Source: a virus
Taxonomy: Duplodnaviria; Caudoviricetes
Reading direction: 5' to 3' (one strand)
IMG/VR virus record: IMGVR_UViG_3300020042_010754
Span: 1-50,343 of that record
DNA length: 50,343 bases
Both the position numbers and the translations under genes were made by a program. The notes under the pieces were generated by a model. The model saw only the letters and a list, made by a program, of their open reading frames with translations. It did no database searches and was not told the origin of the DNA. Position 1 is the stretch's first letter, and every line of letters begins with the position of its first letter. Below, piece by piece: positions 27,209-50,343 of this stretch.

Positions 27209-27248
27209 TTGACAACAACCCAACGTTGTTGTACACTACACATAAATA
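27209..27248 (+). promoter_or_regulatory. sigma70 promoter plus CATAAATA late box
   Basis: TTGACA-17-TACACT. Confidence 0.7.
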
Positions 27249-27254
27249 ACATAT

Positions 27255-27330
27255 CGCGGGAAGGGTCCGGTCACCGGCAGGGTCTCATAAGCCTTTGCAA
27301 TCCTTGGTTCAAATCCAAGTCCCGCAACCA
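27255..27330 (+). tRNA. tRNA-fMet-like (CAT)
   Basis: C1:A72 mismatch, CGCGGG start, TTCAAAT T loop, reduced D arm. Confidence 0.82.
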
Positions 27331-27339
27331 AACACATCC

Positions 27340-27960
27340 ATGGTACCCAAAGTAATCAGAATTACACCAGTAGAATCCTATTTTTCAATTACCTGGGCAA
27401 TAACCAACAAGTGCAATTATGATTGCATGTATTGCCCTGCTGCATTGCATGCAGGGGATCAAGTGTACTCACTGAGCAAGATGCAATCCTACTGGTTGGA
27501 TATTTTTGCCAAGACTCAAGATAAAAATTTAAAATACAAAATTTCGTTCAGTGGCGGCGAAGTCACTACCAACAAAGACTTTGCGCCATTTGTTGCATGG
27601 TTGCGTGAAAACTACCATGATCGCATACATTCTATATTGTTAACTACCAATGGTAGTGCCAGCGTGGCCTACTACATGAAGTTGTACCACAGTGTAGACA
27701 ACATAAGTTTTAGTTTTCACAGTGAACATGCTGATGAAAAACTATTTTATGATAAAATGGTCAAGATCAAGGAAGCCATTGATCCTAAAAATTTCATTCA
27801 TGTAAACATCATGGACGAATACTGGATCAAGGATCGTATTCCTTTGTATACTAAAATTCTAACTGACCATGAGATCAGTCATAGCATTAATTCAATAAAT
27901 TATGCCTTAGGAACACGGACTGTTCCTATTCTTAAAGGTCGGGCTAATCTTGAAATTTGA
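27340..27960 (+). CDS. Radical SAM protein
   Basis: CNYDCMYC, SGGE, TTNGS, SFH. Confidence 0.88.
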   Translation: MVPKVIRITPVESYFSITWAITNKCNYDCMYCPAALHAGDQVYSLSKMQSYWLDIFAKTQDKNLKYKISFSGGEVTTNKDFAPFVAWLRENYHDRIHSILLTTNGSASVAYYMKLYHSVDNISFSFHSEHADEKLFYDKMVKIKEAIDPKNFIHVNIMDEYWIKDRIPLYTKILTDHEISHSINSINYALGTRTVPILKGRANLEI

Positions 27961-32954: not shown

Positions 32955-34139
32955 ATGATCAAGATTGAACAAAACCCCAAGTTGGGTTACTATACGGTTG
33001 GCACAGAAAAATTTTTTAGCAAGCCCATGGCGTTGACACAGGCCACAAAACTCAATCAGTTTCCTGAGTGGAATTTTAATCGTAGTACGTTTGACCAGTA
33101 CAACTGGAGTACTGAACCTGAACTCAGTATTAAAGAACTGTATAGAATTCGTGCGCAGCAATTAAGAGACCGGTACGACTACATAAGATTAGAAGTATCC
33201 GGCGGCGGCGACAGTGCTACGGCTGCATTTAGTTTTATACTCAACGGCATACACCTAGACGAAGTGGTTTTTCGGTATCCCAAGACAGGGGAAAAAAATG
33301 TCACCGACGATCCGTTCAATACTAAACCTGAGAACACACTTAGTGAGTGGAAGTACGCTGCACAACCACTGTTGCAATGGATTTCTACACATTCACCAAA
33401 AACTAAAATCACAATTCATGACTATTCCGAAGACATGTTGTCCAGCAATCACGACGAATCTTGGGTGTATCGCACCAAAGATTATTTTCAGCCAGGGCAC
33501 GTATTCAAACACACCGTGGACGCAGTAGACAGTCATAAGATAACCTTGGATCGGGGACGGAGCGTGTGCATGCTATGGGGAATTGACAAGCCCAAGGTCT
33601 GTATCAAAGATTCAAAATGGTATCTGTACTTTATGGATGTGCAAGCCAACTGTGCCAATCCTGAAGTGGGGCAGTGGGACAACATCACTAATGAATATTT
33701 TTTTTGGTCTCCAGACCTACCAGAGTTGCTATGCAAACAGGCTCACACAATTCGCAGGTGGTTTGATTTACCTTCTAACAAATATCTACAACATCTGGCG
33801 CGGTGGCCCAACTACAGTTTTGCACAACGCACCACGTTTGAACACATCATTAAACCACTGTTGTACCCCGATTACGATCCTGCCACATTTCAAACGTCCA
33901 AACCTACCAACAGTTTTTACAACGAAATGGATCAATGGTTCTACGCCAACTTCCAAGACACTCGTGTTTATCAAGTTTGGCAAGCAGGGTTAAAGTACTT
34001 GGTAGATAATATTGATCCAAAATATTTTAACAACGAGATGGGCAGGCCTGTGGGTTTTGTGGGTTTTATCAGTCCGTTTTACTACTTGGGTGACGCTGCG
34101 TATCACAGCACGGGAATCAATGATCACTTTAAATTTTAA
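32955..34139 (+). CDS. PP-loop (adenine nucleotide alpha-hydrolase-like) protein
   Basis: SGGGDS motif, GIDKP. Confidence 0.65.
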   Translation: MIKIEQNPKLGYYTVGTEKFFSKPMALTQATKLNQFPEWNFNRSTFDQYNWSTEPELSIKELYRIRAQQLRDRYDYIRLEVSGGGDSATAAFSFILNGIHLDEVVFRYPKTGEKNVTDDPFNTKPENTLSEWKYAAQPLLQWISTHSPKTKITIHDYSEDMLSSNHDESWVYRTKDYFQPGHVFKHTVDAVDSHKITLDRGRSVCMLWGIDKPKVCIKDSKWYLYFMDVQANCANPEVGQWDNITNEYFFWSPDLPELLCKQAHTIRRWFDLPSNKYLQHLARWPNYSFAQRTTFEHIIKPLLYPDYDPATFQTSKPTNSFYNEMDQWFYANFQDTRVYQVWQAGLKYLVDNIDPKYFNNEMGRPVGFVGFISPFYYLGDAAYHSTGINDHFKF

Positions 34140-34194
34140 TATAAAAACTAGTTAATTGGTTTTTTAAGCAAATCAACTGAACTAAATAAAACTA

Positions 34195-34305
34195 GCAGCG
34201 TCGCAAGTCGCCGGAATTTTAGTTGACGCCTGGAGCGGCCAAACTCCTTTACTGATGTGTTGCATCAGAACGCCAGCTTCCGTAAGCATGTTTCTACACA
34301 TGTCA
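34195..34305 (+). promoter_or_regulatory. Structured, pseudoknotted 5' leader RNA of the dctP-like gene
   Basis: GCGTC/GACGC, GGAG/CTCC, CTGATG/CATCAG, CGGAA/TTCCG, CATGT/ACATG; after CTAAATA. Confidence 0.55.
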
Positions 34306-34336
34306 GCATCAAAATCATTTAACTAGGAAAAAACAA

Positions 34337-35284
34337 ATGAAAAAAATTACTAAAATTCGTTGGGTTGTTGCACATGATCCACTATACCTATTCTTGCGTG
34401 CCGCTGAAGATTTTCAATCAGAAGTAAATGCACGTAGTAAGGATCATAAAATTGAAGTTGAAATTATGACCCCAGCGCAATATGCTGAACGATACAACGA
34501 AGGAAAATACATTCCTCGCCAAGAGTTGTTTGGCCTCATGCACGAAGGTAAAATTGAAATGAGCCAAATGGTAACTACCACATTGGCAGCAAAATTCAAT
34601 CCAGACATGCACATTCTTGATATGCCGTTCTTGTTTAATGATCACGATCATGCAAGCCGTGCATTGGAAGGAGAGCCAGGTAAACAATTACTCCGCAGTT
34701 TCAGCAAAGAAAGCAATATTCGCGGACTGGCATTCACATACTCCGGCGGATTCCGTTGTGTTCCATCTGGTAAAAATATCAAAAGTCTAGCAGACCTTGC
34801 TGGAGAAACAATCCGTACAGGCATGAACCCAATGGCACGTGATACATTTGCTGCCATTGGTGCCAAGCCAGTAAGTATGGAACTTGAAGAAATGAATGGT
34901 GCTGTTCGTGAAGGTCATGTGATTGGCGGCGAAAGTGCCTGGCCTCGCATTTACCCAACACAACAAAACACATTCAGCAAATCAGTTGTTGATACTGAAC
35001 ACAGTTTGTTCTTGACCAGTATCATTGTCAGTGAAAACTTCTGGAACACGTTGAGTCCTGAGCTGCAACAAATCATTGCTGAGGCTGCTGTTGCTGCCGG
35101 ACGTACAGAACGCCAACGCAGTATTGAAGATGGTGCCGACGCCATGGTCAAGTGCGAGCAAGAAGGTATTAAAGTTATCAAAATCAGCAAAGAAGAACGA
35201 GAGACCTTTAAGAAAAACACTGAGTCCTTGTATGAAAAATATCAATTTGCGCCTGGCTTGTTGACTGCCATTAGAAATAGTTAA
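34337..35284 (+). CDS. dctP: TRAP transporter substrate-binding protein (DctP-like), no signal peptide
   Basis: DMPFLFND.DHA, YSGGFR, DLAG..IR, F.AIGAKP, FWNTLSPELQ. Confidence 0.85.
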   Translation: MKKITKIRWVVAHDPLYLFLRAAEDFQSEVNARSKDHKIEVEIMTPAQYAERYNEGKYIPRQELFGLMHEGKIEMSQMVTTTLAAKFNPDMHILDMPFLFNDHDHASRALEGEPGKQLLRSFSKESNIRGLAFTYSGGFRCVPSGKNIKSLADLAGETIRTGMNPMARDTFAAIGAKPVSMELEEMNGAVREGHVIGGESAWPRIYPTQQNTFSKSVVDTEHSLFLTSIIVSENFWNTLSPELQQIIAEAAVAAGRTERQRSIEDGADAMVKCEQEGIKVIKISKEERETFKKNTESLYEKYQFAPGLLTAIRNS

Positions 35285-35346: not shown

Positions 35347-36297
35347 ATGATTAAAAATCTTTTCATTGCCATAACTCTGGCTATAATTAGCGTATCCTCG
35401 TCTGCTCAGCAGACTATTTCAATTGCCTGGCCATACAGCATGAGCCACGGTACCACTGTTTTAATGTTTCCATTACTGGAAGAGGCCAACCGATCTCAGA
35501 ATCAATATAATTTTATTCTTGAATCCAAGCCTGGAGCAAACGGTCAGATAGCACTAAATCATATGAACCAACTGCCTGTCTCACGTATGGCTGTTATTGC
35601 ACCTGTTTTTGTACAACTTGCAGTTGATGGTAAGATTCGTGAAGAGGACTATAGATACCTTGTTGGATTAGGGGATCTTTGTTTTGCCATATGGGACAAA
35701 CATAGTGAATCTGAAAAAGGTCTTGCTGGCCTAAAAGGCACTGGCGAAATTGTGTTGGGCAACAACGGTTGGGGCAATTCGGGGCACTTGACTGCTTTGG
35801 AAATTGCATCTAAATACAATCTCACTGTTAAAAATATTGTGTTCAAAAGTAACTTCGACGGCCTAGTTAATCTCACACAAAACGGAGGAATAACTCAAGT
35901 TTTAGAGTCAACCAAAGCATTTGATAGTCTTAAATCTCATGCACTAACCCCAGCCAACCCATTAGCAATAACTTGTTCAATTCGTCGTAAAGAAATGCCA
36001 AATGTAAAAACATCCGCCGAGCAAGGAATTGTTACGCCTGGTCCATGGAACATTATTATTGCCAACAAAGAGATGCCAGTAGACACACAAAAAGCAATCA
36101 CTGCTATTATTAATCGCGCTTTGATAACATTAGGAGAGGAGAAGATTCTTGAAATATCAAGTCTACATCCTGTGGTATTTCAAAAGAACAAAGATGTTGA
36201 GATTTATTACAAAACCAGGTCAACTGCTCAAAAAGCGTTGTTGCAAAAATATCAATCAGTCATTGACGCTGATAGAGGAGTCGGTGAAAAGAAATGA
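35347..36297 (+). CDS. Tripartite tricarboxylate transporter (Bug/TctC-like) substrate-binding protein
   Basis: Signal peptide, ESKPGANGQIA, GNSGHL, PNVKTSAEQG. Confidence 0.75.
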   Translation: MIKNLFIAITLAIISVSSSAQQTISIAWPYSMSHGTTVLMFPLLEEANRSQNQYNFILESKPGANGQIALNHMNQLPVSRMAVIAPVFVQLAVDGKIREEDYRYLVGLGDLCFAIWDKHSESEKGLAGLKGTGEIVLGNNGWGNSGHLTALEIASKYNLTVKNIVFKSNFDGLVNLTQNGGITQVLESTKAFDSLKSHALTPANPLAITCSIRRKEMPNVKTSAEQGIVTPGPWNIIIANKEMPVDTQKAITAIINRALITLGEEKILEISSLHPVVFQKNKDVEIYYKTRSTAQKALLQKYQSVIDADRGVGEKK

Positions 36298-36386
36298 CTG
36301 ATCAAGAATATAAAATTGGTTTAAAAATATCAGTAATTGCTGTGGGCTTGTACCTGTTACTAGTACTTGTATGCCATACTATTTAG
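36294..36386 (+). CDS. Small single-TM protein (30 aa)
   Basis: ATGA overlap; MTDQEYKIGLKISVIAVGLYLLLVLVCHTI. Confidence 0.45.
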   Translation: MTDQEYKIGLKISVIAVGLYLLLVLVCHTI

Positions 36387-36387
36387 A

Positions 36388-36416
36388 TTGACAACAAAAT
36401 CAAATAAATATATAAT
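36388..36416 (+). promoter_or_regulatory. Consensus promoter of tmRNA
   Basis: TTGACA-17-TATAAT with ATAAATA inside. Confidence 0.85.
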
Positions 36417-36420
36417 GTAA

Positions 36421-36848
36421 GTTATTGCTGTATGAAGCAAAGAGAAAAGTGTTCTGGACGGGGGTGCGAATCCCCCCAGGTCCACCAAAAGTATTGTGAA
36501 CTGAAACAAGTAATGAACCCGAACTGTGTACAGGTAGAGGTGTAGTGAACAAAAGTAGGTGGCACAGGCTAGTACAACGGAAGAGGTGTTAAACCCGTAG
36601 ATTAAGTTCCTACGCTCTCGCTCAACCGATGCCAGTAGATCGTACCTACTATACTTTTGATGGGCCTGACCTAGATTCGACAGGGCAACAAGTAAATTAG
36701 TGGACAGCTCGGCAATGTAGAAGCCGTTAGGACAGGGGTGACCCGGTCGTAGACACAAAAAAAGTAAAAGCAAACGACTCACAGTTCGCATTAGCAGCCT
36801 AACAGCCGCTTAGGGTAGTTATACCTCGTAACAGAAAATAGCAATAGG
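36421..36848 (+). ncRNA. ssrA: Circularly permuted two-piece tmRNA, tag ANDSQFALAA
   Basis: Acceptor piece with T arm ends CAGGTCCACCA (36487). Coding piece starts GGGCCTGA..GATTCGAC (36662) with G3:U70. Tag ORF 36770-36802. Confidence 0.92.
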
Positions 36849-36872
36849 CTCTTCGGAGCCTATTTTTTTTTA
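36846..36872 (+). terminator. Intrinsic terminator
   Basis: TAGGCTC-TTCG-GAGCCTA + T run. Confidence 0.92.
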
Positions 36873-39181: not shown

Positions 39182-39475
39182 GTGAGCAGTGAACAAGATA
39201 AACTCAAACACAGCAAGCGATTGCTTAAAGATGAAAACACTATAAAGAAGCAAACCAAGATTGCAAAATCTGCAGGATCAGATGTTAGTCAACCACACAG
39301 GTTTGTAAAACACCATGCCATGAACTGCGGTGATCCAAATTGCGTGATGTGTGCTAACCCTCGTAAAGTTTTCAAAGAGCCAACACAGCAAGAAAAACGA
39401 CTGTTTCAGGATCTGGACCAGATTCGTGATACTCGAAATAACGGATTAACTACTAAGGACAATGATGAACTATAA
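39182..39475 (+). CDS. Conserved phage hypothetical protein (C.DPNC..C.NPR)
   Basis: AAGGA RBS, GTG start. Confidence 0.75.
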   Translation: MSSEQDKLKHSKRLLKDENTIKKQTKIAKSAGSDVSQPHRFVKHHAMNCGDPNCVMCANPRKVFKEPTQQEKRLFQDLDQIRDTRNNGLTTKDNDEL

Positions 39476-39719
39476 AAAAGACCCCACTGCTGGTCTCAGC
39501 AACGAAGAAGCTGTTGCTAAAATTGGCAATCGATACGATCTAGTATTGGTTGCTGCACGCCGGATGCGTGAGCTTGGAAGAGGGGCCATGCCACATGTTC
39601 CAAGCAAGCATAGTCCAGCTGTGACTGCTCTGCTTGAAATTGAGGCAGGCCGAGTTGGGATTGATTACTTGTACAAACCACAAGACGTTGAACCGCGCCG
39701 TAGAAGGTTAGATCGTTAA
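39462..39719 (+). CDS. rpoZ: RNA polymerase omega subunit homolog
   Basis: IGNRYDLVLVAARRMREL...AVTALLEIEAG. Confidence 0.88.
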   Translation: MMNYKKDPTAGLSNEEAVAKIGNRYDLVLVAARRMRELGRGAMPHVPSKHSPAVTALLEIEAGRVGIDYLYKPQDVEPRRRRLDR

Positions 39720-40123
39720 TGGCTAGCAAAATTTGGGATTCCATTAACGGAACTGCGCTCAAGAGCTTGCCCAATGCGGCTAAGGGATACGAACAAAGAA
39801 TCACAATTCCAGAATTTACATTTTTGGGGGTTCATAATCAGCCTGATTTTGGTGACATCACCATGTGGTTCTATGGCAAAGATAAAACTATTGAACTCAA
39901 GAGTTTGAAACAGTATCTGTTTCAATACCGAGATACTATCATCAGTTACGAACGTTGCCTGGACGTGATGTACAAACATCTTGTGGCAGCATATGCTCCT
40001 GATCGCCTGCGTATTGAAATTGAATTTCGGCCACGTGGGGGTATTAGCAGTAGCATGACAGTTGACAGTGATTGGGGACACCTGGGCGGTTCTGACACAC
40101 TGTGGCAACATCATAAAAATTAA
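39719..40123 (+). CDS. queF: QueF-like T-fold protein lacking the catalytic Cys
   Basis: PEFT...[13 protein letters not shown] QueF motif, PRGGI. Confidence 0.78.
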
Positions 40124-40130
40124 GGAACAC

Positions 40131-41417
40131 ATGGATTACAAAGTTAAAGATATTGCCCTGGCAAGCTGGGGACGCAAGGAAATTGCCATTGCCGAAAGCG
40201 AAATGCCGGGCTTGATGGCAGTCAGGCGAGAATATGCTGCTGCCAAGCCCCTGGCCGGCGCACGTATTGCCGGCAGTTTACACATGACTATTCAAACTGC
40301 TGTGTTGGTTGAAACCCTGATTGACCTGGGCGCCAGTGTTCGCTGGAGTAGCTGCAATATTTTCAGCACTCAGGATCAAGCCGCCGCGGCTCTGGCTACA
40401 CAAGGTATTCCTGTATTTGCCTGGAAAGGTGAAACTGAAGACGAGTACTGGTGGTGTCTTGAACAAACTCTTGAAGGACCCAACGGCTGGCGTCCCAACA
40501 TGTTGCTGGACGACGGGCATGACTTGACTGGATATGTGCATGATCGTAGGCCAGATCTATTGGCAGGTATTATTGGGGTTACCGAAGAAACCACAACTGG
40601 CATTCACAAGCTGCTGGCTCGTGTGGCTGCTGGCACTCTCAAGATGCCTGCTATCAACGTCAATGACTCGGTCACCAAGACCAAGTTTGATAACTTGTAT
40701 GGCTGCCGTGAAAGTCTAGTTGATGCTATCAAACGTGCAACTGATGTCATGATCGCTGGCAAGGTTGCTGTGGTAGCCGGTTATGGAGACGTGGGCAAGG
40801 GATCGGCACAGGCCTTGCGAGCACTTAGCGCACAAGTCTGGGTAACCGAGATTGATCCTATTTGTGCATTGCAAGCAGCCATGGAAGGCTACCGTGTGGT
40901 CACCATGGAGTATGCTGCTGACAAAGCAGACATCTTTGTTGCGGCTACCGGCAACGTTGGTATCATTACTCGCGCACACATGGCAGCAATGAAAAACAAC
41001 GCCATTGTTTGCAACATTGGGCACTTTGATACCGAGATTGATGTTGCTGGCATCAAGGATTGTGTATGGGAAAACATCAAACCACAGGTGGATCACATCA
41101 TCTTCCCTGGTGGCAAGCGCATTATCTTGTTGGCAGAAGGGCGACTGGTAAATCTTGGTTGCGGTACTGGCCACCCTAGCTTTGTAATGAGCAACAGTTT
41201 TACCAACCAGGTGTTGGCACAGATTGAATTGTTTAGTCATGCAAACCGGTACGAGTCCGGAAAACTCTATCTGTTGCCCAGGCACATTGACGAACAAGTT
41301 GCACGACTACACCTGGGACAACTTGGTGCCCAGCTCACTGAGTTGACTCCGGAGCAGGCAGCATATATCAACGTTGATGTTAGCGGACCCTACAAGGTAG
41401 ACGCATACCGATACTGA
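40131..41417 (+). CDS. ahcY: S-adenosylhomocysteine hydrolase
   Basis: [56 protein letters not shown]. Confidence 0.97.
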
Positions 41418-46391: not shown

Positions 46392-47207
46392 ATGAACAAC
46401 ACCACAGTATCTAATGTTTCCTTGACAAGGACTGTTACGGTGCTGAATCATCACGGCGAGATGCAGACATTACAAATACCCACTGAACGTGCTTTAACTG
46501 TTTATGTGGATAAAAAAGAAATTGTCACGCTGATGACACTGGGAGCCTATCCCAAATGGTTGGTGTTGGGATACTTGCTCAATCAACGACTGATTGCTTC
46601 CGCAGCAGAAATAGATTCAATAACAGTAGATTGGGAAGTTGGTGCGGCTGCGGTAAAGACTCATACTGGAATTGTCAATCTCAAGAGAAAAACAACCAAA
46701 CGCACAGTTACCAGTGGTTGTGGGCAAGGTAGTATGTTTGGAGAGTTGATGCACAATATCAGTGATATACAACTTCCACCAGCCTTGATCACGCAAACCC
46801 AGTTGTATGCTATTGTAAATACCATACGCACAAATGACAGCATTTATAAAACTGCTGGATCTGTACATGGTTGTGCATTGTTTCAAGGTGAAAACATGCT
46901 GGTGTTTATTGAAGATGTGGGGCGACACAATGCATTAGATGCCATTGCCGGATGGCTGGCGCTACAACCCCGAGACAGCATAGCAGTAAATGACCGAGTA
47001 TTTTACACAACTGGAAGACTGACCAGCGAGATGATTATTAAGTCTGCACAAATGGCGGTGCCTATCGTTATATCTCGCAGTGGTATTACTGAAATGGGTT
47101 ATGAAATTGCAAAAAAACTAAATCTATGCGCCATAGGCCGAGCAACCAATAGACGCTTTTTTTGTTTTACTGCACCTGAAAGATTTTTATATGGAGTTGA
47201 AGAATGA
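46392..47207 (+). CDS. fdhD: Formate dehydrogenase accessory sulfurtransferase
   Basis: TSGCGQG, GSVHGCAL, EDVGRHNALD, TGRLTSEM..K. Confidence 0.93.
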   Translation: MNNTTVSNVSLTRTVTVLNHHGEMQTLQIPTERALTVYVDKKEIVTLMTLGAYPKWLVLGYLLNQRLIASAAEIDSITVDWEVGAAAVKTHTGIVNLKRKTTKRTVTSGCGQGSMFGELMHNISDIQLPPALITQTQLYAIVNTIRTNDSIYKTAGSVHGCALFQGENMLVFIEDVGRHNALDAIAGWLALQPRDSIAVNDRVFYTTGRLTSEMIIKSAQMAVPIVISRSGITEMGYEIAKKLNLCAIGRATNRRFFCFTAPERFLYGVEE

Positions 47208-49766: not shown

Positions 49767-50343
49767 ACACATTGGACGTCACGGCGACCGAAAGGTTGCA
49801 ATATTATTTAGAGAAGTACCAGGTGAGGATCACATGTGCCTTGTGATTTATCCAGATACATTACCCACTCATATTCATAATTCAATCATGAGCACACTAG
49901 AAAGTGCTCCGGGTCAGGCTGCAACAAATCTGTCAGAAGTGCTGCACCGTAATCTCTTGCCCGATGGTAGACCACAACTAGAAGCTCTACACAAAGAAGG
50001 TATGATCAAGAAGGTGCCAACTGCACAGATTATTGTAACACCTACTTTACAAAGCAGTGTCAAGTTGGATGAGCTAAACAAGATCATTCGTGAGATGGAA
50101 TCTGGTGAACAGGCTCTCAAGCGACTACAAGACATTGACAAAAATAGCGGATACGTTGATCCAGCACAGAAGCGCAAGGCCGAAGCAGAATACAAACGAA
50201 GTCAAGAAAAAACACAAAATTCTACTCCCGTGCCTGCACTTGATGCTTCTCAAAACAGCGCATTAGATGATCAAAGTATTGCTGTCAACCTGTTAGCACA
50301 GGCCAAACGTATGGAGGTAGATGCCCGCGGCATGATTAACGAA
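49759..50343 (+). CDS. Hypothetical protein, 3' truncated (MLKHIGRHGDRKVAI...)
   Basis: AAGGAG RBS, open to the window end. Confidence 0.75.
   Translation, partial: MLKHIGRHGDRKVAILFREVPGEDHMCLVIYPDTLPTHIHNSIMSTLESAPGQAATNLSEVLHRNLLPDGRPQLEALHKEGMIKKVPTAQIIVTPTLQSSVKLDELNKIIREMESGEQALKRLQDIDKNSGYVDPAQKRKAEAEYKRSQEKTQNSTPVPALDASQNSALDDQSIAVNLLAQAKRMEVDARGMINE

Follow-up and report, generated by a model that had tools for sequence, protein, structure and literature searches.

In the available portion of PMC9004378, riboswitches are called rare in phages, and the cases described there resemble bacterial classes. The closest described systems are the manA and wcaG motifs (RF01745 and RF01761; Weinberg 2010, PMC2864571), presented in the accessible part of that study as orphan riboswitch candidates in the 5′ UTRs of T4-like phages and aquatic metagenomes. 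A further precedent is the glutamine riboswitch (glnA motif), predicted in T4-like, tmRNA-carrying phages and found as tandem aptamers, according to the same portion of PMC9004378 and to PMC2864571 in part.

The DNA analyzed here is a 50,343-base stretch, called the window throughout, which is contained in freshwater and lake sequencing runs. On its plus strand, a leader RNA (34194–34307) lies between an upstream ORF (32955–34139) and a DctP-family gene (34337–35284) that begins with the ATG at 34337. The translation of the upstream ORF, considered as context only, contains SGGGDS, which we take to be a PP-loop-like motif; the ORF has no Pfam and no PHROG match. The DctP-like identity of the downstream gene, proposed in the initial annotation, is borne out by Pfam (PF03480, E = 7.7e-49).

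As far as manA and wcaG are described in the accessible part of PMC2864571, they share with this leader the varied host-metabolism genes downstream and the lack of an assigned ligand, but they are marine and cyanophage-linked, with manA also occurring in bacteria, whereas this leader is freshwater, precedes solute-binding proteins and is found in phage-type DNA only. Their models do not match it. The glutamine riboswitch differs as well: it gives no Rfam match here, has other conserved bases and, in the sources seen in part, is mainly bacterial with a known ligand.

The leader is a real, abundant phage RNA motif, apparently uncatalogued, that belongs to large freshwater phages of about 350 kb. 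With a probability of roughly 45%, we read it as a phage-specific ligand-sensing RNA, a candidate riboswitch that would tune uptake and tailoring genes. This reading fits best because the motif occupies a 5′ position, has invariant junction bases and a module that can be duplicated, and occurs gene by gene in front of non-homologous uptake genes.

Relation to catalogued RNA families

In Rfam 15, no family reached its gathering threshold on the leader, and the same held for the motif at 20 homologous loci, in agreement with the earlier statement that the RNA could not be placed in a known class. The sole match at E ≤ 10 was the freshwater-2 motif (RF02980; 18.8 bits against a gathering threshold of 49.9, E = 0.96), which is cis-regulatory like this leader; the match is confined to the last hairpin (P5, see below) and the ribosome-binding site (RBS), and RF02980 is absent from the 20 homologous loci at E ≤ 1. 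Resemblances to guanidine-II ACG loops, the purine-riboswitch junction and the hatchet ribozyme were set aside, as none of these Rfam models scored. The least probable of the readings considered is a new ribozyme at the 5′ end of the transcript, self-cleaving or end-modifying. The compact multi-junction fold, the invariant bases and the absence of a visible expression platform would suit it, but no Rfam ribozyme model matched at E ≤ 10 on the leader or at E ≤ 1 in the 20 homologous loci, and we would not expect a ribozyme to show tandem duplication of an inner module or a transporter gene theme downstream.

The 8,495 candidate structured RNAs of PMC10690425 come from the same source database, IMG/VR, and are objects of the same kind. 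Neither motif strings nor domain names had a match in four supplementary tables (among nine files) of that study, and prior cataloguing of the leader in the partly accessible sets of PMC10690425 or PMC5737381 is possible. No description of the motif was found in literature listings and the opening lines of abstracts.

Homologous copies define a nested fold

The folding energy of the window leader is unremarkable relative to shuffles (z = −0.13), and the case for a structured RNA therefore rests on homologues. Phage loci fetched by the DctP protein alone, at about 50% identity, carried the leader in 11 of 11 instances, a recurrence well above what chance would give. A pattern built on the 3′ half of the motif matched 100 viral and at least 120 metagenome stretches (about 300 estimated); 213 of 221 matches parse as the motif, and the other eight comprise two chance-like matches, one truncated copy and five variants. 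An independent 5′-half pattern matched at least 120 viral stretches (about 210 estimated). Among the 120 matches listed, the 99 that have a promoter box, and one that has none, carry the whole motif, and the remaining 20, which have neither box nor 3′ half, are attributed to chance. One further pattern gave an additional distinct copy at 1 of 120 loci. A total of 227 distinct copies, the window copy included, were parsed from phage and metagenome contigs; these are not independent lineages, and about six were parsed from a wrong start, which explains four apparent P1 breaks and some copies scored as having no promoter. The window contains no second copy (next best match 8.8 bits, E = 3.8), and a similar sequence at 49811 (minus strand) was rejected, as it falls inside a plus-strand ORF.

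In the resulting nested fold, helices P0, P1, P2 and P5 surround an outer junction, and P2 leads through a variable linker into an inner module that contains P3 and P4. In an unfitted MAFFT alignment of 38 copies, for which the search pattern fixed part of P3, this fold is 98.4% paired with two-sided changes at 10 of 22 pairs, and 0 of 500 shuffles reach as high, relatedness not entering the shuffle. A model-fitted alignment of 99 copies displays two-sided changes at 19 of 26 pairs, and RNAalifold recovers P0, P1, P3 and P4. Anchor-based counts, free of search-pattern bias, show that P3 pairs in all 53 copies retrieved without using P3, and the first pair of P1 in 170 of 170 copies retrieved without using P1 (A-U in 125, G-C in 36 and G-U in 9). 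At variable pairs, G-U outnumbers A-C by 18 to 3 (9 to 0 in the P1 extension), which fixes the RNA strand.

P0 joins GC at 34195–34196 to the GC of a conserved AGC at 34306–34307, and both of its pairs covary: among 99 aligned copies, two change G-C to A-U and one changes C-G to U-A. A GC partner is retained in 10 of 10 short variants. P1 is a local hairpin (34198–34211) with a conserved mismatch, C·A in most copies and U·U in the window copy and in copies L138 and L153. The strands of P2, CGGAA (34212–34216) and TTCCG (34278–34282), covary through G-C to A-U swaps, with conservation restricted to CGG/CCG. P5 (34286–34303), a hairpin of at least 3 bp in 201 of 224 copies and not a terminator, ends 21 nt upstream of the RBS and leaves it uncovered. 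P2 and P5 are jointly missing in 10 of the 227 copies.

Every string named in the initial annotation is present, and its final hairpin before the RBS, identical to P5, is supported by compensatory changes. The multi-way junction that it proposed survives in part: GGAG/CTCC (34232–34235 and 34244–34247, P3) and CTGATG/CATCAG (34252–34257 and 34263–34268, P4) are likewise backed by compensatory changes, but the pairs of CTGG/CCAG (34230–34233 and 34273–34276) are kept in 77, 170, 108 and 188 of 224 copies, and this stem was dropped. A P1 formed by GCGTC (34198–34202) and GACGC (34225–34229) had also been suggested, with CGGAA/TTCCG crossing it as a pseudoknot. The latter is a real stem, its first three pairs supported by covariation; since the covarying P1 is the local hairpin, it is nested and not a pseudoknot. 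The pseudoknot arose because, with the U of this lineage, GCGTC and GACGC match perfectly. With the crossing helix, pairing amounts to 64.7% and GCGTC/GACGC lacks two-sided change; the earlier fold as a whole is 70.3% paired, a level reached by 357 of 500 shuffles (MAFFT, n = 38). Neither a known family nor an absence of covariation was found, covariation being present for the nested fold.

It is very unlikely that a real second conformation is formed by the earlier pseudoknot or by some other exchange of partners among the two GACG and the two CGCC segments. The 5-bp match of GCGTC to GACGC is indeed perfect in the window copy, and the invariant strands of the inner module leave their partner unfixed by covariation, RNAalifold offering ACG with CGU as an alternative for the AACG of the module. 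Across copies, however, the earlier P1 retains its first pair in 45 of 170 and its fourth in 7 of 170, without covariation, and in L036, L054 and L150, where both strands of P1 are altered, the local hairpin persists.

Promoter box and transcript start

The leader is preceded on the plus strand by a late-promoter-like box, CTAAATA, at 34182–34188. The sequence TAA[AG]TA is located upstream of 218 of 227 copies, ending 5–6 nt before the motif in 198 of these, and resembles the T4 late promoter as given in the available portion of PMC9004378. A purine occupies position 6 after the box in 90% of the 218 copies (14% at position 5), which suggests that transcription starts at the edge of the motif, putatively at A34194 in the window, one base before the motif. 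RNA contigs from four runs leave 33608–34183 uncovered and are uninformative on start, strand or level; a single RNA-library contig covers 34207–34472 and so bridges leader and ORF, which lends weak support to their residing on one transcript, as DNA carry-over is possible.

A start at the motif edge, together with paired 5′ and 3′ ends, would also be compatible with a free-standing small RNA gene or a constitutive 5′ stabilizer made from the late promoter, the downstream gene being a passenger. Each of 19 long phage records has one copy apiece, often near tRNA or tmRNA genes, and 14 of 57 long-spacer copies have a separate sigma70-like promoter downstream of the motif. We consider this reading improbable, because separate copies head adjacent genes, short variants adjoin the RBS at 27–34 nt from the ATG, and an intrinsic terminator is lacking (a T-rich tail follows P5 in just 22 of 181 copies); the bridging contig points weakly in the same direction. 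In L023, L025, L027, L031 and L038 the sigma70-like promoter comes right after the motif, which allows expression that bypasses the leader.

The inner module and its duplication

The aptamer-like module spans 34225–34274 and is built of GACGCC, P3 (34232–34247), UUUA (34248–34251), P4 (34252–34268) and AACGCC. GACGC, UUUA and ACGCC are invariant in 99 of 99 copies, and the module is predicted to form a three-way junction. Its ends can pair as GACG/CGCC with an A·C mismatch, as in P1; this closing helix is only a prediction because its strands never vary. The module is doubled within one P2 in six distinct sequences. In addition, four shorter contigs contain two separate copies each, about 1.1 kb apart and each with its own promoter box; in three of them, the copies head adjacent TctC-like and DctP genes. 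Features of the riboswitch class are seen in the motif: a 5′ UTR structure that is conserved and covaries, strong conservation of bases that are unpaired or pair non-canonically, and a duplicable module.

Downstream genes and distribution

In the window, the DctP-like protein aligns from its residue 21 to residue 19 of the 306-residue SiaP chain 2cex. The protein lacks a hydrophobic signal peptide and is therefore probably cytoplasmic; likewise, none of the N-termini of 69 DctP-like relatives contains a hydrophobic stretch. The gene that follows (35347–36297, plus strand) is probably the second of the DctP unit and encodes a TctC/Bug-like protein with a hydrophobic N-terminus (hydrophobicity 3.13; Pfam TctC E = 6e-4, under the curated cut-off).

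Transport or solute-binding genes follow 143 of 199 copies (DctP 71, TctC-like 53, SBP_bac_8 6, TctA 5, porin 5 and NMT1-like 3), the names being drawn from 36 representatives, 1–3 per cluster, several of them weak. The 56 genes unassigned to transport are DUF2061 (12), TauD (9), a PP-loop-like cluster (9; the label is a reading of the motif, as the cluster has no Pfam match), hexapeptide transferase (6), desaturase (4) and others (16). The downstream genes are non-homologous and appear transport-themed, with no single substrate and with counts from lineages that are not independent; part of the theme may be positional, since the locus lies within an island rich in transport genes. The proposal of a riboswitch-like leader, mostly ahead of transporter genes, is supported as a candidate.

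A strict pattern gave four matches in 185,579 prokaryotic genomes (GTDB). Two of these (L112 and L113), without P1 and promoter, were treated as chance. The third is on a contig of 70 kb that also has phage-type genes and boxes, and its bin contains a further contig with another copy beside 26 tRNAs; the fourth is a 3-kb contig with a box and a signal-less DctP, presumed to be phage. A covariance model found no match in 150 other genomes of the class to which the bin with the 70-kb contig belongs, so that no bacterial chromosomal copy was found by the strict pattern in the 185,579 genomes or by the model in the 150. This counts against a riboswitch, since the validated riboswitch classes known so far are host-encoded, although divergent forms may exist in bacteria. 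Isolated phages gave no DNA match, and protein matches of just 20–29%.

The phage-only distribution is also consistent with a protein-binding leader, in which a phage or host protein would recognize the two GACG/CGCC helices with their A·C mismatches and control translation, stability or elongation. The helix motif of P1 recurs, in opposite order, in the predicted module stem, tandem repeats suit dimeric proteins too (the pan motif in the accessible part of PMC2864571), and a general expression platform was not found. We nevertheless regard protein binding as less likely than ligand sensing: the obvious candidate, the signal-less DctP, is missing from half of the near-complete genomes with the motif (present in 4 of 8, and in 10 of 19 genomes overall), four other DctP paralogue leaders, from the four of eight loci listed, lack the motif, and the many invariant junction bases would suit a small-ligand pocket. 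Autoregulation by the DctP protein itself is disfavored by the same genome and paralogue counts.

Expression platform and proposed mechanism

A Shine-Dalgarno-like AGGA at 34325–34328 (plus strand) is mostly open in the predicted folds of the window copy, with an unpaired probability of 0.67 when folded freely and 0.90 with the consensus stems enforced; no anti-Shine-Dalgarno (anti-SD) hairpin is predicted in this copy. Over the copies, an anti-SD pairing of P3/UUUA is matched in strength by 24% of shuffles, and enforcement of the consensus stems leaves SD accessibility nearly the same (0.29 versus 0.31), with 1 of 148 copies switching. The 3′ strand of P5 pairs with the SD slightly better than in shuffles (−3.27 versus −2.97), but this value, obtained before any lineage correction, was given no weight. 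A local fold of the spacer that leads to the start codon pairs the P0 cytosine in 33 of 138 copies. The strongest of these hairpins bury the SD and lose about 3 kcal/mol without the P0 cytosine, and P0 formation would therefore free the ribosome site. This signal was reached by 0 of 300 shuffles before lineage collapse, but after collapse to 59 lineages p is 0.32, with five strong cases. Neither an intrinsic terminator nor a general SD switch across copies was found, and the switch is the weakest part of the ligand-sensing reading.

Under the ligand-sensing reading, the leader RNA would begin at the first base of the late transcript and its inner module would bind a small molecule. Binding would stabilize the two-base-pair P0 and thereby tie the 5′ end to the 3′ AGC, and P0 closure would in turn raise expression, with output through translation or mRNA stability. 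In about a quarter of copies, closure may free the ribosome site from the anti-SD hairpin that starts at the P0 cytosine; in the others, the window copy included, it may instead shield the 5′ end from decay. The ligand might be a general metabolic signal or a small organic acid, a guess made because the genes are diverse. More tentatively, the motif may be a riboswitch class that arose in jumbo phages and occurs nowhere else. Its modular and in some cases tandem aptamer, placed at +1 of late transcripts, would sense the metabolic state of the infected cell and switch on the uptake and tailoring genes of the phage through closure of the 5′ end.

If true, a phage-only ligand-sensing class would mean that viruses evolve RNA sensors of their own with which they manage the metabolism of the host, and it would help to identify the substrate of phage solute-binding proteins, which are widespread and unexplained. 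Minimal variants (about 80 nt) and tandem variants occur naturally and make the leader directly testable. Even if bound by a protein, it would be an abundant, uncatalogued regulatory RNA of freshwater phages of about 350 kb.

Other features of the window and of related phages

Rfam identifies 28 tRNA matches and a permuted tmRNA in the window. The tmRNA (36374–36866) is a two-piece molecule of betaproteobacterial type that RNA libraries cover heavily; relatives skip 150–170 nt of the middle. The regions 39462–41417 and 46392–47207 include RNA polymerase omega-like (Pfam Rpb6) and QueF-like genes, together with what are presumably SAH-hydrolase-like and FdhD-like ORFs, named from their translations; QueE-like and GTP cyclohydrolase genes are located upstream. 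A GC-rich segment at 27242–27340, directly after another TAAATA box and without an Rfam match at the gathering threshold, is possibly another structured RNA.

Close homologues of the window DctP-like protein also include proteins labelled as Bacteriovorax MAG proteins. Several phage-type contigs are binned into bacterial MAGs in GTDB (L514 and L515 in G020, L114 in G021). In G002 (L482:7037–7989), G012 and G014, the DctP behind the motif is broken into two ORFs (about 156 and 162 residues), and each of these genomes encodes a second, intact DctP paralogue elsewhere. A motif-bearing phage also carries an ARAGORN-predicted tRNA with a CTA anticodon (L481:2460–2534), a possible amber suppressor.
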